A stretch of 64,000 nucleotides of DNA. It comes from a virus. The translations under genes and the position numbers were made by a program. The notes under the pieces are model-generated. The model was not told the DNA's origin. It worked only from the letters and a program-made list of their open reading frames with translations, and did not search any database. This document shows positions 48,915 to 55,752 of the stretch, piece by piece (the stretch's first letter is position 1; each line of letters begins with the position of its first letter). The stretch covers positions 1 to 64,000 of IMG/VR virus record IMGVR_UViG_3300027985_001623, one strand, 5' to 3'.

Positions 48915-51053
48915 TTAGCGCACTCCAAAAATAGGGCTAAACCCAGATTCAAGTCGCTGCTCGCCGAGCTTGCCTAGGTCATTAGCAAACGCGACAGCGA
49001 TTTGATCAGGGTTCATCCCCTCCTCGAATTTCTGTGTGATATCAAATCGGCTATACCGAAAATCCATCACCGCCCGGCCGCCCCCGCCGCGAGCTTTGGG
49101 AACGGTCAAACTTCCTGCGTCCGTGGCAGGAACGTTTATGGCGGGTGCGTCAATCCGAGCCATCAATTTTTCGAGCCACGAAGGCCCGTCTGACGAACTC
49201 GTTTGGAGTCCAGAAAAGGCGGACTGCATCGAAATGCCCCCGCTCTTCTCAGTCTTGTCGGCAACGACCTTGAGAATGCTTCCGAGCCAAGCAATAAAAT
49301 CAGAAATGACGTTAATAAGCGCCGTGAAAATATTGCTCGCCACATTAAAGACAGGCAAGAGCATTTTCAAAAAGACTTCGTAGAGCTTATATGCTGTTAC
49401 GGCCAAGATTCGAATAACCGGATTCAAAAACTCGCCGATAGCTCGAAACAAGTTGCCCGCAGCTTTCCAAATCTGGTTCAGCGCCGGCCGCAACATAACG
49501 AGGAACACGCGAGAAACTTCGATAACGTGCCCGATGAAAATACCCACTGGCTCAGCAACGGCAAAAATCATCGACATGAACCCGCCCAGTGCATTGCCGA
49601 GCACATCCCCGATGAGCGTAGCGACAGTAAATACAGCATTGCCAATCTGAGCCAGCGGTTCAAGCATCGCCCCGCCGTAAGCCGCCATCTGACTCAAGAT
49701 GTCTGAAAAAAGCTGACCATTCGAGACGAGTTCGCCAATGACTACAGCAACGAGTGCGACCGGACCCGTCGCAGCACCAAGTGCTGCTAGCCCTCCCGCA
49801 GCGACGCCTCCGGCTCCGCTTTTATCTGCCATGCTCGCGATACCACTGACAGCCTGGCTTGCTACAGACCCGACAGTGCCAAGAATCTTTTGAACTCCTG
49901 GCATAGCAGCAACCTCTTGAAGTTTAGTGCCAAAGACACCAATAATGTTGATACCCGAACTAACTCCGGAAACAAGCGCTTCCGAAATCATTCGACCAAC
50001 ATTCACAACGCGCGTACCAATCGATTGCAAATGGCCATCCGAATCAAGGAGGCTATCATTAATCGCCCCTAAACTCGTTTTCATCGCGTCAAAAACAGGC
50101 GCAGTCCCGAGCCGCGTCAAGTACTCGATATTGGAGATCAACGCACCTTTCATTGCGTCGTAGCTGGTCTCCGCCCGATCCAGCATCGGTTGGAGCCGAT
50201 CCATTGCCTTGGCCAGCAAATCAGCGCGCTCGGGTGCGGTCATCTCGTTGAACGACCGCGCCGTGATGCCTGCCTGCCCCTCAAGCTTCCGTATGATCGG
50301 CAAAATAGCTTGAAACGACCGCACATTACCGCCGGCTCGGCCCTGATCGGCCTGAAGCATCAAGTTCAAATCGCGACCGGCCTGCGGAGCGTCAACACCG
50401 AGAGTTTTTGTGATCGCGGTGTAGCGGTTGGAAAACGCCGTCATCTTATCGAGCGTTCCACCAACCGCCCCTTGCAGCGCACCAAGCCCTGCACGAAAGA
50501 CCTGAATGTACTCGTCCGCACTACCTGGCAACTTCGCCGCCGCAATGCGAATCTTCTCGATGACCGCCTCAGCATGGACCATCGACTTGTCAAACTCGTT
50601 AACGATGCCCAAGCCAACTAAAAACCCGGCGATCTGAATGTGCGTCTTCTCGAATGAGTTTCCAAGTTCGGAAACCTTCAATGCCGCAAAACCAAGACCA
50701 AGTCCTGCAAGGGCAACACCGACCATGCTCAACGGGGACAAAAGTGTGGACAGTCCCGCCCCGATCGCTGAAATAGCCTCGCCACCCATCGAGGCCAAGC
50801 GCATGAAGGAGGCCCCCACACCATGATTCGCGGCGACGAGGTTCTTCGCAGCCCCAATCGGCTGTCGATACGTTCGCTCAACGACGGACATCGTCACCCG
50901 CTGAGAAGCAGCAAAACGAGCCGACGCTGCGGAAGCAGCCGAAGCGGCCCCACCAGCCGCGTTCATCGTTCTCGTCAAGTGCGCCGCGGCAGCCGACGCT
51001 TTGTCGACAACCGTGAACGTAGTTCGTACTTCGCGCTCGACGTTGGATGCCAT
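48915..51053 (-). CDS. tape measure protein
   Basis: TFTVVDKAS N-terminus, A/G-rich amphipathic helices; after chaperones. Confidence 0.85.
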   Translation of the reverse strand: MASNVEREVRTTFTVVDKASAAAAHLTRTMNAAGGAASAASAASARFAASQRVTMSVVERTYRQPIGAAKNLVAANHGVGASFMRLASMGGEAISAIGAGLSTLLSPLSMVGVALAGLGLGFAALKVSELGNSFEKTHIQIAGFLVGLGIVNEFDKSMVHAEAVIEKIRIAAAKLPGSADEYIQVFRAGLGALQGAVGGTLDKMTAFSNRYTAITKTLGVDAPQAGRDLNLMLQADQGRAGGNVRSFQAILPIIRKLEGQAGITARSFNEMTAPERADLLAKAMDRLQPMLDRAETSYDAMKGALISNIEYLTRLGTAPVFDAMKTSLGAINDSLLDSDGHLQSIGTRVVNVGRMISEALVSGVSSGINIIGVFGTKLQEVAAMPGVQKILGTVGSVASQAVSGIASMADKSGAGGVAAGGLAALGAATGPVALVAVVIGELVSNGQLFSDILSQMAAYGGAMLEPLAQIGNAVFTVATLIGDVLGNALGGFMSMIFAVAEPVGIFIGHVIEVSRVFLVMLRPALNQIWKAAGNLFRAIGEFLNPVIRILAVTAYKLYEVFLKMLLPVFNVASNIFTALINVISDFIAWLGSILKVVADKTEKSGGISMQSAFSGLQTSSSDGPSWLEKLMARIDAPAINVPATDAGSLTVPKARGGGGRAVMDFRYSRFDITQKFEEGMNPDQIAVAFANDLGKLGEQRLESGFSPIFGVR

Positions 51054-51058
51054 GGGAG

Positions 51059-51310
51059 CTAGTCGATGTCCTGTGGGCTAAACTGACGTTTTTCGTCAGC
51101 CATGATCTGTGCGATTTCCTCGGATAAAATCGCGAGTTCCGACATAGTCCGCTCAAGCAGAGACGGAATTTGCTGGTGCGCGTATCTGCCTAGGAAGGCG
51201 AACACCTGAAAGAGGCGTCGCTGGTGAGAAAACTCAGACCGCACCAAAGCCTGAGCAAGCTGGGCCAAGCTAATCGCTACCCGACCTCCGTTCGCTGACT
51301 GGACAAAAAA
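51059..51310 (-). CDS. -1 frame extension of tail assembly chaperone
   Basis: -1 frame open from slippery site to TAG at 51059. Confidence 0.7.
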   Translation of the reverse strand, partial: FFVQSANGGRVAISLAQLAQALVRSEFSHQRRLFQVFAFLGRYAHQQIPSLLERTMSELAILSEEIAQIMADEKRQFSPQDID

Positions 51311-51660
51311 GACTTCGTGTCTCCGTCCTCAACGTTGTGAATTGCCCCGTACGCGGTAATCACCAACTGCCGCACCTTCGCCATACCCGGAGCCATGGAG
51401 GCCCAGAATTTATCGGTAGTGTTGTCCGCAGTTGTCATCCGCTCGTCGTTGATGTAGCGAAGACACGCCTTGGCCAGCTCGTAGCCAAGAGCGATCGGAT
51501 CCCTCCCCGCTCGGGAAGTAGCCATGAGCTCCTCCTTTGAAAGAAGTTCGATGATCCCGATTTTTCGCACCCCACTCAGTTGAGCGAGAGCTTCGGGGAC
51601 CTCGAACCAGTAGATGGGTCGCGTAATTTCGGGAGTTGTGAAGTTGATGTCCGGAGTCAT
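51277..51660 (-). CDS. tail assembly chaperone
   Basis: Between tube and tape measure, with slippery site. Confidence 0.78.
   Translation of the reverse strand: MTPDINFTTPEITRPIYWFEVPEALAQLSGVRKIGIIELLSKEELMATSRAGRDPIALGYELAKACLRYINDERMTTADNTTDKFWASMAPGMAKVRQLVITAYGAIHNVEDGDTKSFLSSQRTEVG
51304..51310 (-). other. programmed -1 frameshift heptamer T TTT TTG
   Basis: XXXYYYZ site near the end of the chaperone gene. Confidence 0.75.
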
Positions 51661-51669
51661 GTGATCACC

Positions 51670-52104
51670 TTAAAGCGGAAGCACCTGAGCGTTGCTTGAC
51701 GCCAAAGAGATCTTGAACGATCCAAAGTCAGAACGCGAGTTAAAGTTGAACGGTAGCGGGCCGAACTCCGCGTTGAGAATGACAATTCGCGCGCGCGCTC
51801 CCGAAGGAAACGACATCGTGCATTTGATGTTGATCTGCGTCCCCGGCTCGCGACGTCGCGCCTTATTGACGATGTCGAGCACCAACTTCAGAACGGCCGG
51901 ACTGTCGAAATGGAACTCGGCCTCACCCTCGATGCCATCAAAAATGGCGTCATACTCCTGCGAAGTCTGACCAAGGTAGCCTTCTTCAAGAATTTTGTTC
52001 TTGAAGGTAAAGCTAAACGACTTCACGTGGTTTAGCGCGTCCTGAGGCTGCCCGTTAACGACACTTAGAATTTCGACCTCTTGTCCCTTAATACGCTGTC
52101 CCAT
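51670..52104 (-). CDS. tail tube protein
   Basis: 144 aa beta-rich protein downstream of sheath. Confidence 0.78.
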   Translation of the reverse strand: MGQRIKGQEVEILSVVNGQPQDALNHVKSFSFTFKNKILEEGYLGQTSQEYDAIFDGIEGEAEFHFDSPAVLKLVLDIVNKARRREPGTQINIKCTMSFPSGARARIVILNAEFGPLPFNFNSRSDFGSFKISLASSNAQVLPL

Positions 52105-52127
52105 GGTGATTCTCGACTTCCTGGTGG

Positions 52128-52295
52128 TCGCGCTCCGGGGGCGATGTCAGCTTTCAAGCGTTTCTGGCAAAGGCAATGGCAGCGCGTACCAGAAAGCGAA
52201 GGTGTAAAAAATAGGGCCCCATTCAGGTTTCAGCTGAATGGGGCCCTATCCTCCGGAAGGAGTGCGACACCGTGACACGCCCCCGAGGCGAGTCC
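52128..52295 (-). ncRNA. structured RNA / attenuator-like leader upstream of tail tube
   Basis: 19-bp outer stem, nested hairpins, internal terminator; promoter immediately upstream. Confidence 0.6.
52206..52249 (-). terminator. intrinsic terminator-like hairpin
   Basis: Perfect 16-bp stem atagggccccattcag/ctgaatggggccctat followed by a T run. Confidence 0.75.
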
Positions 52296-52301
52296 ATCTA
52301 A

Positions 52302-52330
52302 AGACTACCGGCTTGACTCGGGAGCAGCAA
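52302..52330 (-). promoter_or_regulatory. sigma70-type promoter
   Basis: TTGCTG-N17-TAGTCT. Confidence 0.55.
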
Positions 52331-52337
52331 GTAAAAC

Positions 52338-52565
52338 CTATGAATCGCCGAGAACTCTTTTGATTTCAGCCCAAAGTGTCATCCGAATAATGTCGGCGAT
52401 CGCCAACGGAGTTCGACCGGGAGATCCCGCGTTTAAGTGGGCTTGAAGCTGCCGTAGCTTCGTATTGAGCGATTCATCGACACGCACCATGAGCTGGATA
52501 TTCAAACCGCCGGGGGCTTTGCGCGGGGCGCCGCCTTTCGTTCGAGCGTTCTCCGGATTTTGCAT
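52338..52565 (-). CDS. ribbon-helix-helix (Arc/CopG-like) protein
   Basis: QLMVRVDESLNTKL...IADIIRMTL; ATG 6 nt after TATTGT. Confidence 0.7.
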   Translation of the reverse strand: MQNPENARTKGGAPRKAPGGLNIQLMVRVDESLNTKLRQLQAHLNAGSPGRTPLAIADIIRMTLWAEIKRVLGDS

Positions 52566-52619
52566 AGCGCAACAATACAACTATACGAGCCGGGGGTTTG
52601 AAGTTTTTGTCAGAGTGCG

Positions 52620-52760
52620 CGATCCGCGACGCGAAGCGGACAGAGACCCGACGAAAAGCGCGAAGCGCTTTGAGAAGGGTCTCTGTAACTATCGCCTGAA
52701 ATGTACGCTATAAGAGACAAACTTTTGGTTAAAGCTCGATGCAGCCCTGCCGGCCCGCAT
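52620..52760 (-). ncRNA. candidate structured ncRNA
   Basis: Four hairpins including a 10-bp stem 52640-52649/52677-52686; TTGACA-N17-TATCTC upstream. Confidence 0.4.
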
Positions 52761-53038
52761 CTCGCTGAGATATCGTGAAAGTGATCTTTTGTCAACGTAA
52801 AAAATCAGACCTCGATTTAACCCGGCTGGGTATGCGTCTAGGCTGTTTTTTATGAGCGATCAACGCGCTACACAATGATCGCCCCGTACGCAAGCAAACT
52901 GAAAAACCGCTCCGGGATCTAACCTCATTGTCCGGCTAAAAATCTATTTCAGCGTACGTCTTAAAATTTCGAGCTTCTTCAAAAATGGAAGCGTTGCGAA
53001 CGGCGTTTTAGCTCTGTGTATCTCTTCGAATTCTGGAT

Positions 53039-53067
53039 AAAAAGAACCCCCGATAGGCTCGGGGGTC
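53039..53067 (-). terminator. intrinsic terminator
   Basis: gacccccga-gccta-tcgggggtt followed by ctttttat. Confidence 0.7.
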
Positions 53068-53195
53068 AGAGGCCTGCCGGTCGAGGCGAGGGCCGGCACC
53101 AGGTTCGTCGTTATAGCGGTAGAACCCCGCCCCACCCAGAGCGGCATCCGCTGGGATGCGTCGCGTACCGTTACGGCCAGGTGGATTGTCGTTGC
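53039..53195 (-). ncRNA. candidate structured ncRNA or sheath 3' UTR
   Basis: Chain of GC-rich hairpins ending in a terminator. Confidence 0.4.
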
Positions 53196-53271
53196 AAGCA
53201 ACGCATATTGGAAAAGTAGCATAGTGCTTCGGGCAAATCTACTTTTTGTGTATTTACCCGAAATCGAGCGT

Positions 53272-55752
53272 TTAGGCGGCTTCGAATGTTACGTTCTCGC
53301 CGATGTTGGTTTGAAGCGCGATGAAGTCCATAGACGCCATCGTTCGCACACTGAGGATAACGACGAATATCCCTTTGGCTTCGAGCGCGAGAGTGTTTCC
53401 CGACGTGTCATCGATTTGGTAGTCGATGATGCGTTGAGCCGGCGGATTGTTCTCGCTTTTGAGCTCCTGCATAAACGCTTCGATTTCGCCAATTGCGGAG
53501 TCTTTGTTACGTTCCACGAGCGGCAACTTGCAAAATTGCACGAGCCTTCGAGCGATTGAATCCTGTATGAAGTCCGCCATTCGCCGACGCGAGATGTTTT
53601 TTTCGCCGGAAATAAGGCTGGTCGTAATGCCCGATTGGACGATTGGACCCACGACACGGTCGATCCGCAGCGCGCACACCCCCCGATTTCTGAGCGTGAT
53701 GTAATCGTCCTTCTCTAAGTTCTGCACTCCAGTTTGGAGCCCCAAAACACTCGCCAGAAGTTCTGGAACGGGGGCCGCAGCCTGGCCGATATTCCGCTCT
53801 GGAGCGATGTTCGACATCAACGATGCAGTCCACGTGCTGAACGCGATATCGAGGACGCCATCAACCGTGGTCAGCCCGTTCGCGAGCTTGATCCGCGTGC
53901 CAACAGCTTCGGGAATGTAAGTTCGGGCCCCGGGCCACGAGTAGACCACCCGCTCGGCTCGATATGCTCCGACGCCAGGCGACGTCGCGCCGACCACCGT
54001 GTCTAGTGAGGTCGTGGTCAACTCAGGGCTCAAAATCGCGATACGGCCGAGCCCATCGCTACTCGCTGAAAGTGCATTTGACCGTAACGCCGATCGAATG
54101 TTGGCACTCGTTCGTGCGGAGACGATTAGGTTGATTTCCGACACGGGTGTGGCATCGGAAATCATTGCGGCCAGGGCTGTCGTGTAGGCGGCATCGATTA
54201 GCGCCGCATTTGGGGCATTTAGCCCCTGAAGCGCGGCCACAAATGCCATGGCCGTGATTGGATGCAGGCGCCCCGCGAGACCGGACAGCGGATCGGCCGT
54301 GTCCCCGGTGAGGGCGGGAGGTTGGCTGATCGGCGCCACGAGCTCCCCTAGCGGGTAAACGCCGTCAACGACGCCGCCAGTAGCGTTTGTCACGGGTCGG
54401 ACAGGGGTGGAGAACCCTCCGGGGTCATTCTGGTCGTAGCCGCCAGCTCCCGTGGCGCCAAGCACAACAACCGGCGCCGAGTCGGCATCGGAGCTGACGT
54501 GCACGCGCCATGGAACGTTCGCCGCAGCCGTCCAGGCGAAGTTGGCTCCATCGAGACGTTCGACAGTTAGGTTCGTCCCCGAAACCGCGTCCGTTGCAAC
54601 TCGGTAAGTTCCGCCGCCAGTTGGCGCAATTGCTCCGAGGTTGTCGTAGCCGATGACAATGACGTCACCCTTCTTGAGGCCCACATCGCCGTCATCTCGT
54701 GTGATGGCTGCCCAATCGATCCCGTCGACAAACCCTTGGTCGTATACGGGGGCTGTAGTGTAGATCGTGGTGAGTCGCGCGCGAATGTAGAAAGCTGGAA
54801 CTGCATTGATTGTGTTCTCGGCCCAATCGCTTGGCGCCGAGAACTCGATCGTTTGCCCTGCACTAACGGCGGCTGTGAACCCAACCGTTCCATCGGTGAC
54901 AGTTAGCGCGGCCCAAGCCGAGCCGTTCCAATATTCCCAAGTGACCACGCCTCCAACGCCTTGCGTTCCGCCTGTGTTGTTCAGCGTGATTTTGGTGAAT
55001 TGCTCTGCCATGCCGAACGCGACAAAGTCGGCGACGGTGCCCAACGCGTCCCAAGGAGTGAAATTAGCTACGGTCTCGTCGTTAAATTCGGTGGTTTGGT
55101 CGACAAACACCGTCCCCCCTGTGTTCGCTTGCCAAACTTGCAGGGCAGCCGACGCGGAGACAAACACTTGCGTTGCCGCCGATGCTCCGCCGAGTAGCTG
55201 CCCCGCGAGACCGGTGGCGAGGGTATCGAACGCAGTGAAGTTGATGCGCTTTGCGATCAGCACACGACCACCGGTGCTGTTCCGGAACTCCCGCCCGGGG
55301 GTGATCGTGGCCCCTTGGACCGGAACGACTGGGAGGGCATCTTCTTGTGAAGAGCACAACGGTAGCTCTCGGAAAAAACGGGCTCCGACATTCGATGTAA
55401 GGTTGACCGGCGCGATAATTAGACGGCTGAATCGCTTGTTTCGAATCGCTGCGAAACCGTTTCCACCTGCGCGTCCGAAGTCCCCGAGAGTCGGGTCAAA
55501 GGAGCCAACCTTGTTGAGCAGGTCTTGGCTGGTAGTGACCGCGACCGGCCGCACAAACGTCGTGACGTTGCCGCTTCCGTCCACGTCCGTGGCGTAAGAC
55601 ATGTCGGGGAATTCACCAACCAACCCGACGACGCCCGTACTGACTCCTTCGATGGAGCCGGTAGGGGCGAGATCGATGATGTTGACGCCCTCGATTTGTG
55701 AAAGAACTTCAGTTCCCGGAAAGTATGAAAATCGTCGGATGAATCCTGGCAT
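53272..55752 (-). CDS. contractile tail sheath protein with inserted domains
   Basis: IEGVSTGVVGLVGEF N-terminus; C-terminal GITT...ISRRRMADFI...MDFIAL. Confidence 0.9.
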   Translation of the reverse strand: MPGFIRRFSYFPGTEVLSQIEGVNIIDLAPTGSIEGVSTGVVGLVGEFPDMSYATDVDGSGNVTTFVRPVAVTTSQDLLNKVGSFDPTLGDFGRAGGNGFAAIRNKRFSRLIIAPVNLTSNVGARFFRELPLCSSQEDALPVVPVQGATITPGREFRNSTGGRVLIAKRINFTAFDTLATGLAGQLLGGASAATQVFVSASAALQVWQANTGGTVFVDQTTEFNDETVANFTPWDALGTVADFVAFGMAEQFTKITLNNTGGTQGVGGVVTWEYWNGSAWAALTVTDGTVGFTAAVSAGQTIEFSAPSDWAENTINAVPAFYIRARLTTIYTTAPVYDQGFVDGIDWAAITRDDGDVGLKKGDVIVIGYDNLGAIAPTGGGTYRVATDAVSGTNLTVERLDGANFAWTAAANVPWRVHVSSDADSAPVVVLGATGAGGYDQNDPGGFSTPVRPVTNATGGVVDGVYPLGELVAPISQPPALTGDTADPLSGLAGRLHPITAMAFVAALQGLNAPNAALIDAAYTTALAAMISDATPVSEINLIVSARTSANIRSALRSNALSASSDGLGRIAILSPELTTTSLDTVVGATSPGVGAYRAERVVYSWPGARTYIPEAVGTRIKLANGLTTVDGVLDIAFSTWTASLMSNIAPERNIGQAAAPVPELLASVLGLQTGVQNLEKDDYITLRNRGVCALRIDRVVGPIVQSGITTSLISGEKNISRRRMADFIQDSIARRLVQFCKLPLVERNKDSAIGEIEAFMQELKSENNPPAQRIIDYQIDDTSGNTLALEAKGIFVVILSVRTMASMDFIALQTNIGENVTFEAA

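Follow-up and report, generated by a model that had tools for sequence, protein, structure and literature searches.

A conserved promoter and two-hairpin RNA with a predicted terminator upstream of the tail tube gene in a family of uncultured myoviruses

The sheath-tube gap and its genomic setting

Between the tail sheath and tail tube genes of an uncultured virus lies a strongly folding non-coding stretch with a promoter at one end and a ribosome-binding site at the other, raising the question of whether it controls the tail genes that follow. The DNA analysed (hereafter the window, 64,000 nt) represents the initial 64 kb of an IMG/VR virus record that is complete at 98.5 kb and carries direct terminal repeats. 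On its minus strand, to which all window coordinates below refer, the genes follow the order head, sheath, ribbon-helix-helix-like (RHH), tube, tape measure and baseplate. The major head protein is encoded at 59867-58473, a tail sheath of 826 aa at 55752-53272 and a tail tube protein of 144 aa at 52104-51670, with its ATG at 52104 and a Shine-Dalgarno sequence, AGGAAG, at 52122-52117; the tape measure gene (51053-48915) and the baseplate genes come next. The gap between sheath and tube spans 1.17 kb and holds the RHH-like gene.

The 144-aa protein had no match in Pfam or PHROG. Its AlphaFold2 model (pLDDT 83.5) matched in Foldseek the tube proteins of PVC, diffocin, AFP, phage 812 and R-pyocin, and this predicted structure identifies the gene as that of the tail tube, the label it had been given in an earlier note made on this DNA from the sequence alone. 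No DNA or protein match to the region, the tube or the sheath was found in the GenBank phage collection, and among prokaryote genomes a related tube gene was present on two MAG contigs only, labelled Armatimonadetes and Deltaproteobacteria.

The RHH-like gene (52565-52338, 75 aa by translation) is part of an insert of about 1.1 kb that reaches from the sheath gene to the element described below, and its stop codon abuts the promoter of that element. The protein had no Pfam or PHROG match and no relative was found in one search of IMG/VR; the gene was also absent from this position in the few relatives' inserts that were read. Upstream of it, past the sheath stop, the stretch 53272-52566 is rich in hairpins, one of them terminator-like (53067-53045), and has the appearance of a moron-type insertion separating the sheath gene from the conserved unit. 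It contains TTGACA (52795-52790)-N17-TATCTC upstream of the RHH-like gene and a weak Rfam match to anti-hemB (53104-53037, E 0.1), below threshold.

Fold, conservation and covariation of the RNA

The minimum-energy fold of the minus-strand RNA 52295-52105 had a free energy of -88.7 kcal/mol (z = -5.5 against 200 dinucleotide shuffles) and contained every helix that had been listed for this region before. The segment at its 5' end (52295-52273) occupies a position where relatives have either a local hairpin, P0, or nothing; here too it forms a local hairpin (-11.4 kcal/mol) when the RNA stops at the U tract, whereas in the read-through RNA it becomes the 5' arm of a long-range outer stem. A GGUGU/ACACC helix (52271-52267 with 52205-52201) follows, and then the box GUCGCAC (52268-52262; family consensus GCYKCAC), conserved and single-stranded as judged by column conservation in a model-guided alignment. 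Hairpin P1, CUCC-UUCC-GGAG, lies at 52262-52251 (pair probability about 0.96), and the sequence GAUAGGGC at 52250-52243, with its invariant AUAGGG, makes up both the P1/P2 junction and the base of P2, a 17-bp hairpin (52250-52210, pair probability 1.0) with a U6 tract at 52211-52206. A third, lineage-specific hairpin, UUUCUGG.../...CCAGAAA, occupies 52197-52158 with pair probabilities of 0.6-0.9. The P1/P2 junction is about 100 nt from the Shine-Dalgarno sequence in this phage, and the latter was sequestered in no predicted fold.

The outer stem, which in the earlier note enclosed all of these elements, pairs 52295-52273 with 52149-52126 over 19-22 bp, and its 3' arm ends 3 nt before the Shine-Dalgarno sequence. 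Its core of 13 bp has a pair probability of about 0.9 in the read-through RNA, and elsewhere in this genome not one of 5312 segment pairs with equal spacing reached its duplex energy of -35.5 kcal/mol. Nevertheless, when the 92-nt spacer was shuffled with its composition kept, a stem just as strong arose in 10 of 300 cases, because the leader is G-rich, and the stem is thus only marginally above chance. The 3' arm and hairpin 3 sit in a stretch of about 85 nt that is missing from most relatives, which makes the nested architecture a feature of this one phage. Pairing between leader and spacer was no better than in shuffles in 12 of the 13 relatives with spacers, the exception being an 11-nt leader in locus L037, and was rejected as a family feature; the closest relative (L090) also folded with a long-range stem, which was rejected likewise because 54 of 300 shuffles matched it. 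The nested stem therefore stands as a thermodynamically stable helix of the predicted fold, marginal against shuffles and unconserved.

What is conserved lies inside. The tube protein had 182 metagenomic homologues, many of them on contigs of 85-98 kb, and 80 loci from IMG/VR and 80 from metagenomes were fetched, the closest relatives being among the latter. Upstream of their tube genes the same order recurs: GCYKCAC, the short hairpin P1, G/A-AUAGGGC, the long hairpin P2, a tail CYUUUYNNUUU and the ribosome-binding site. A covariance model (R1) built from 15 of the relatives' sequences matched the whole conserved core of this phage at 52268-52203 (38.4 bits, E = 4e-9), its single match both in the window and in the 98.5-kb genome. 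Among the relatives, R1 matched 83 of 99 and 50 of 61 loci (133 of 160, some of them duplicates), once per locus and without exception on the tube-sense strand, and it was single-copy in six complete genomes of about 90-98 kb (this phage and five relatives). AUAGGG was present in 68-69 of 69 distinct sequences and, with its hairpin context, occurs once in the 98.5-kb genome.

As a control for specificity, the pattern CCGCAC-N8-36-GATAGGGC was searched for in IMG/VR, and none of 80 loci among the matches listed fitted R1; the model had no match in 698 kb of unrelated viral DNA carrying both sequence boxes by chance. Two other readings of the boxes were rejected, namely GATAGGGC as a general late promoter or terminator motif, because it is single-copy, and a promoter made of GCYKCAC and GATAGGGC, because their spacing varies. 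Rfam 15 gave nothing over the element at E <= 10 (window 50000-55000), no family reached its gathering score anywhere in the window, 12 relatives had no match at E <= 1, and no description of the element was found in the literature. The element thus matches no catalogued RNA family.

In most loci only 5-47 nt separate the element from the tube start, too short a distance to accommodate a further promoter. Genes have been inserted between the sheath gene and the promoter in about 25 loci, as in this phage, and between the element and the tube gene in about 10, in which the junction is 290-865 nt from the Shine-Dalgarno sequence. The sheath-tube gap is a hot spot for the insertion of accessory genes, to either side of the unit. 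Gaps of 540-865 nt between element and tube were seen in L014, L017, L020, L023, L026, L034, L035 and L097, and the insert of L017 and L020 resembles an HNH endonuclease. L047/L048 (2354-2470) carries a partial tandem duplication, in which, behind a complete copy, GAGAGGAUAGGGC-hairpin-U tract recurs without GCYKCAC, yielding two consecutive terminators. In the most distant relatives the sheath gene is joined directly to the tube gene and the element is absent.

Both hairpins were supported by covariation. In an alignment of 71 distinct sequences that was fitted to the model, and hence biased towards the structure, 88.9% of the cells were paired compared to 67% in shuffles, 317 cells carried double changes compared to 104, and the covariation score was 0.568 compared to 0.19 in shuffles and 0.06-0.16 with slid partners. 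A blind mutual-information scan over all column pairs also placed the pairs of P1 and P2 at the top. Each of the six model pairs of P1 had changed on both sides among relatives, with 91.7% of cells paired, and 9 of the 13 model pairs of P2 covaried, so that both helices, conserved and covarying, are far beyond chance. The P1 loop varies from 3 to more than 15 nt and has no conserved sequence. As the helix of P1 covaries freely in sequence, the 'anti-SD' CUCCUUCC noticed earlier is just one of its versions, and that idea fails. The conserved G.U pairs in the lowest part of P2 would turn into A.C on the opposite strand, and the fold thus belongs to the sense transcript.

The junction between the two hairpins appears to be structured as well. 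The A of CAC and the G before AUAGGG were found as A.G in 55 sequences, G.A in 8, A.A in 4 and A.U in 2, never as G.G, and the C and A neighbouring this pair are invariant. Such A.G/G.A covariation indicates that a non-canonical purine pair closes and extends P1, and hence that the junction would have a defined three-dimensional shape.

Promoter and predicted terminator

A promoter of the sigma70 type was read from the sequence at 52330-52302, with a -35 box TTGCTG (52330-52325), a 17-nt spacer and a -10 box TAGTCT (52307-52302). These boxes place the first nucleotide near 52295, in agreement with the start predicted in the earlier note, and TTGCTG-N17-TAGTCT occupies the position homologous to that of the relatives' promoters. 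In most relatives the element is preceded by TTGACN-N17-TAGNNT, and with a spacer of 16-18 nt (TTGACN-N16-18-TAGNNT) the motif stands upstream of it at nearly every locus. The strict form TTGACN-N16-18-TANNNT was present in 33 of 94 distinct loci compared to 3 of 8651 control windows, an enrichment of about 1000-fold. The consensus over about 90 loci, TTGACN-N17-TAG(R)(R)T, appears to resemble the primary-sigma promoter consensus of high-GC Gram-positive bacteria. Across loci, the -10 hexamer ends 7-50 nt before GCYKCAC; at short spacings this box falls at about +2 to +6 of the predicted transcript, and at long spacings a local P0 hairpin is intercalated. In several loci (L008, L010, L016, L083, L092 and others) the TGA stop of the sheath gene lies inside the -35 box TTGACG, so that transcripts of the sheath gene also run into P2.

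At the other end of the unit, P2 and its tail have the make-up of an intrinsic terminator, a G+C-rich hairpin directly followed by a U-rich tract (here a 17-bp stem and U6). The approximate d'Aubenton-Carafa score was above 0 in 84 of 96 distinct family members and 15.6 in this phage, and genomes with 55-75% GC retain the U-rich tail. P2 is thus predicted to act as an intrinsic terminator, and the 3' ends of the RNA would fall around 52208-52205. Neither the folds nor the mutual-information scan revealed an antiterminator fold mutually exclusive with it.

This bears on the previous proposal of two products, a short terminated RNA and a read-through leader, from an attenuator or riboswitch-like switch. 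The layout of promoter, RNA of about 90 nt and terminator is conserved in the family and the tube gene would need read-through, which makes the two-product, attenuator part of that proposal reasonable. As to the riboswitch-like part, the conserved structured junction is present, but no competing helix appeared in folds or mutual information, and this part gained no support.

Possible roles of the unit

The sequence comparisons show a conserved promoter and a covarying two-hairpin RNA with an invariant junction and a terminator-like P2, positioned such that only read-through would give access to the tube gene. The reading that we propose, and to which we give about an even chance of being right, is that the region is a promoter-proximal leader with an intrinsic terminator, that is, a transcription attenuator, before the tube, chaperone, tape-measure and baseplate genes. 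The host-type promoter with its -10 box at 52307-52302 would start an RNA near 52295, which would fold into the P0 hairpin, the GUCGCAC box, the A.G-closed P1 and the invariant GAUAGGGC opening P2. Most polymerases, both those initiating at this promoter and those arriving from the sheath or RHH-like genes upstream, would terminate at the U tract (52211-52206), releasing an RNA of about 90 nt, and the tube message would be made on read-through transcripts only. That the P1/P2 junction is structured and invariant in sequence points to a specific partner, which could be a ligand or a protein of phage or host and may set the extent of read-through. In this phage alone, the spacer past the terminator would pair with the 5' leader in the read-through RNA to give a domain of 170 nt that stops 3 nt short of the ribosome-binding site and might stabilise or process the tube mRNA. 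Termination, the setting of its efficiency by a factor through the junction and a role of the outer stem in the read-through RNA are all inferred here from sequence, and the unit would probably serve to throttle or time the expression of the tail genes.

Some observations sit uneasily with an attenuator. It is odd to find a terminator between sheath and tube, whose proteins are needed in equal numbers, and distant relatives do without the element. Furthermore, the presence of a gene between element and tube in about 10 loci means that the link to the tube gene is not obligatory, and a role as the master late switch is excluded, since no such unit precedes the upstream genes for head and sheath.

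Several of the same features could be accommodated in other ways. Promoter and terminator are inseparable whichever side the insertions fall, the strong near-consensus -35 box is conserved, and GCYKCAC is found at about +2 to +6 in the loci with short spacing, all of which would suit a stand-alone gene for a trans-acting sRNA of 65-110 nt, with GCYKCAC and GAUAG as its seeds and tube expression as leaky read-through. However, the box nucleotides behave as a structured junction, with A.G/G.A covariation and an invariant C and A, rather than as a free seed, and the phage hosts are diverse in GC content, making a shared host target unlikely; we consider an sRNA gene of this kind unlikely. A similarly low probability is given to a passive operon boundary, in which no regulated switch exists, P2 is the terminator and 3' stabiliser of the head-sheath transcript, and the hairpins and U-rich tract act as a 5' stabiliser and translational enhancer for a tube message from the adjacent promoter. 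The overlap of the sheath stop with the promoter, which makes P2 the first terminator after the sheath gene, the U tract directly preceding the Shine-Dalgarno sequence in many loci and the tandem second P2 in L047, as expected for a reinforced stop, all fit this explanation. Ordinary terminators, however, keep their structure and not their sequence, whereas AUAGGG, C6, A53 and the A.G pair are invariant or covarying across tube proteins that are only 32-63% identical, and a strong terminator in the 5' UTR of the promoter's own transcript would defeat that promoter.

Control could instead be exerted on translation. Autogenous control by phage proteins is established for T4 gp32 and the P22 scaffold, and a structural or assembly protein, for example free tube protein, might bind the P1/P2 junction and repress tube translation autogenously, with P2 placing the junction beside both the U tract and the Shine-Dalgarno sequence. 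This would agree with a structured, invariant junction within 5-47 nt of the start codon in most loci. On the other hand, the junction is some 100 nt away from the Shine-Dalgarno sequence here and 290-865 nt away in about 10 loci, that sequence is unsequestered in any predicted fold, and the conserved U tract and promoter are left unexplained, so that such an operator seems improbable. Least credible, and in our opinion very improbable, is a retron-like msr-msd, a ribozyme or a known riboswitch, to which only the appearance of an outer stem with a long hairpin points. There is no Rfam match, the outer stem is not conserved and no reverse transcriptase (Pfam PF00078) was detected in the whole 98.5-kb genome; the likeness to a retron drawn earlier fails because the genome lacks this enzyme.

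A more specific form of regulation may also be considered, in which the GCYKCAC-P1-GAUAGGGC tag, fused to a terminator, is the RNA target of a putative phage or host antitermination factor that licenses transcription from tube to baseplate. The unit would then be a new RNA-guided late-gene switch of a large uncultured family of about 90-kb myoviruses, unrelated to N, Q, put and LoaP, a possibility that we regard as tentative and rather doubtful. In the 98.5-kb genome, Pfam searches detected no Q antiterminator (PF06530/PF03589, E <= 1) and no NusG-like gene. No sigma70 region 2 or 4 domain was detected either, in disagreement with the sigma-like protein mentioned in the earlier note, and a single-subunit RNA polymerase gave no Pfam match in a search whose control was uninformative. 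A 92-aa N-like protein is encoded outside the window at genome positions 83257-83535, plus strand (L171:1258-1536); it starts with MNKTRRNRARRRRAERRADANW, an arginine-rich N-terminus with Trp that resembles the RNA-binding motif of lambda N. Five complete relatives yielded no counterpart, and the protein, not being conserved, was rejected as a candidate for the factor.

Among known systems, the late region of lambdoid phages has a promoter, PR', a 194-nt 6S leader RNA and a terminator, tR', which is read through with Q. The unit described here is similarly built from a host-type promoter, a short non-coding RNA and an intrinsic terminator, is single-copy and would give access to virion genes by read-through. 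It differs in that this phage has no Q homologue, that the conserved features are RNA helices and that it lies in the middle of the virion module, past the head and sheath genes, instead of at the head of the module. In addition, the boxes lie 7-50 nt from the -10 hexamer and the length of P1 varies, without DNA elements at fixed distances from the promoter such as the Q-binding element and the -10-like pause inducer of the lambdoid switch, and this variable spacing does not fit a DNA-bound Q at a sigma-dependent promoter-proximal pause. LoaP, a NusG paralogue, acts on the leaders of the dfn and mln operons, where the factor recognises a small RNA hairpin before intrinsic terminators. The leader described here likewise has a small conserved hairpin, flanked by invariant nucleotides and shortly before a predicted intrinsic terminator, but the phage has no NusG-like gene and the tag is fused directly to the terminator stem.

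In the N/nut system of lambda (boxA and boxB), the boxB hairpin has a conserved GNRA-like loop that is bound by an arginine-rich peptide, and in the put RNAs of HK022 two adjacent hairpins act on the transcribing polymerase. The element shares with nut a conserved single-stranded box followed by a hairpin close to the promoter, and with put the two adjacent hairpins. In contrast to boxB, the loop of P1 varies in length and sequence; the second hairpin is itself the predicted terminator, and the arginine-rich protein of this phage was missing from the five relatives searched. Rfam also lists 'downstream element' motifs, Mu-gpT-DE among them, that adjoin phage structural genes and have no known function. 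They resemble the element in being conserved structured RNAs at the boundary of a highly expressed virion gene, although the latter matches no Rfam model and has its own promoter and terminator.

To our knowledge, almost nothing is known about the control of transcription in uncultured phages. The data presented here describe a compact unit of about 70 nt, with good covariation support, in the same place in more than 130 related loci. If read-through depends on a factor, the unit would represent a new antitermination system, and its RNA tag would offer a handle for fishing out that factor. If the attenuator is constitutive, it would show how such phages separate the expression of head and sheath from that of tube and baseplate.
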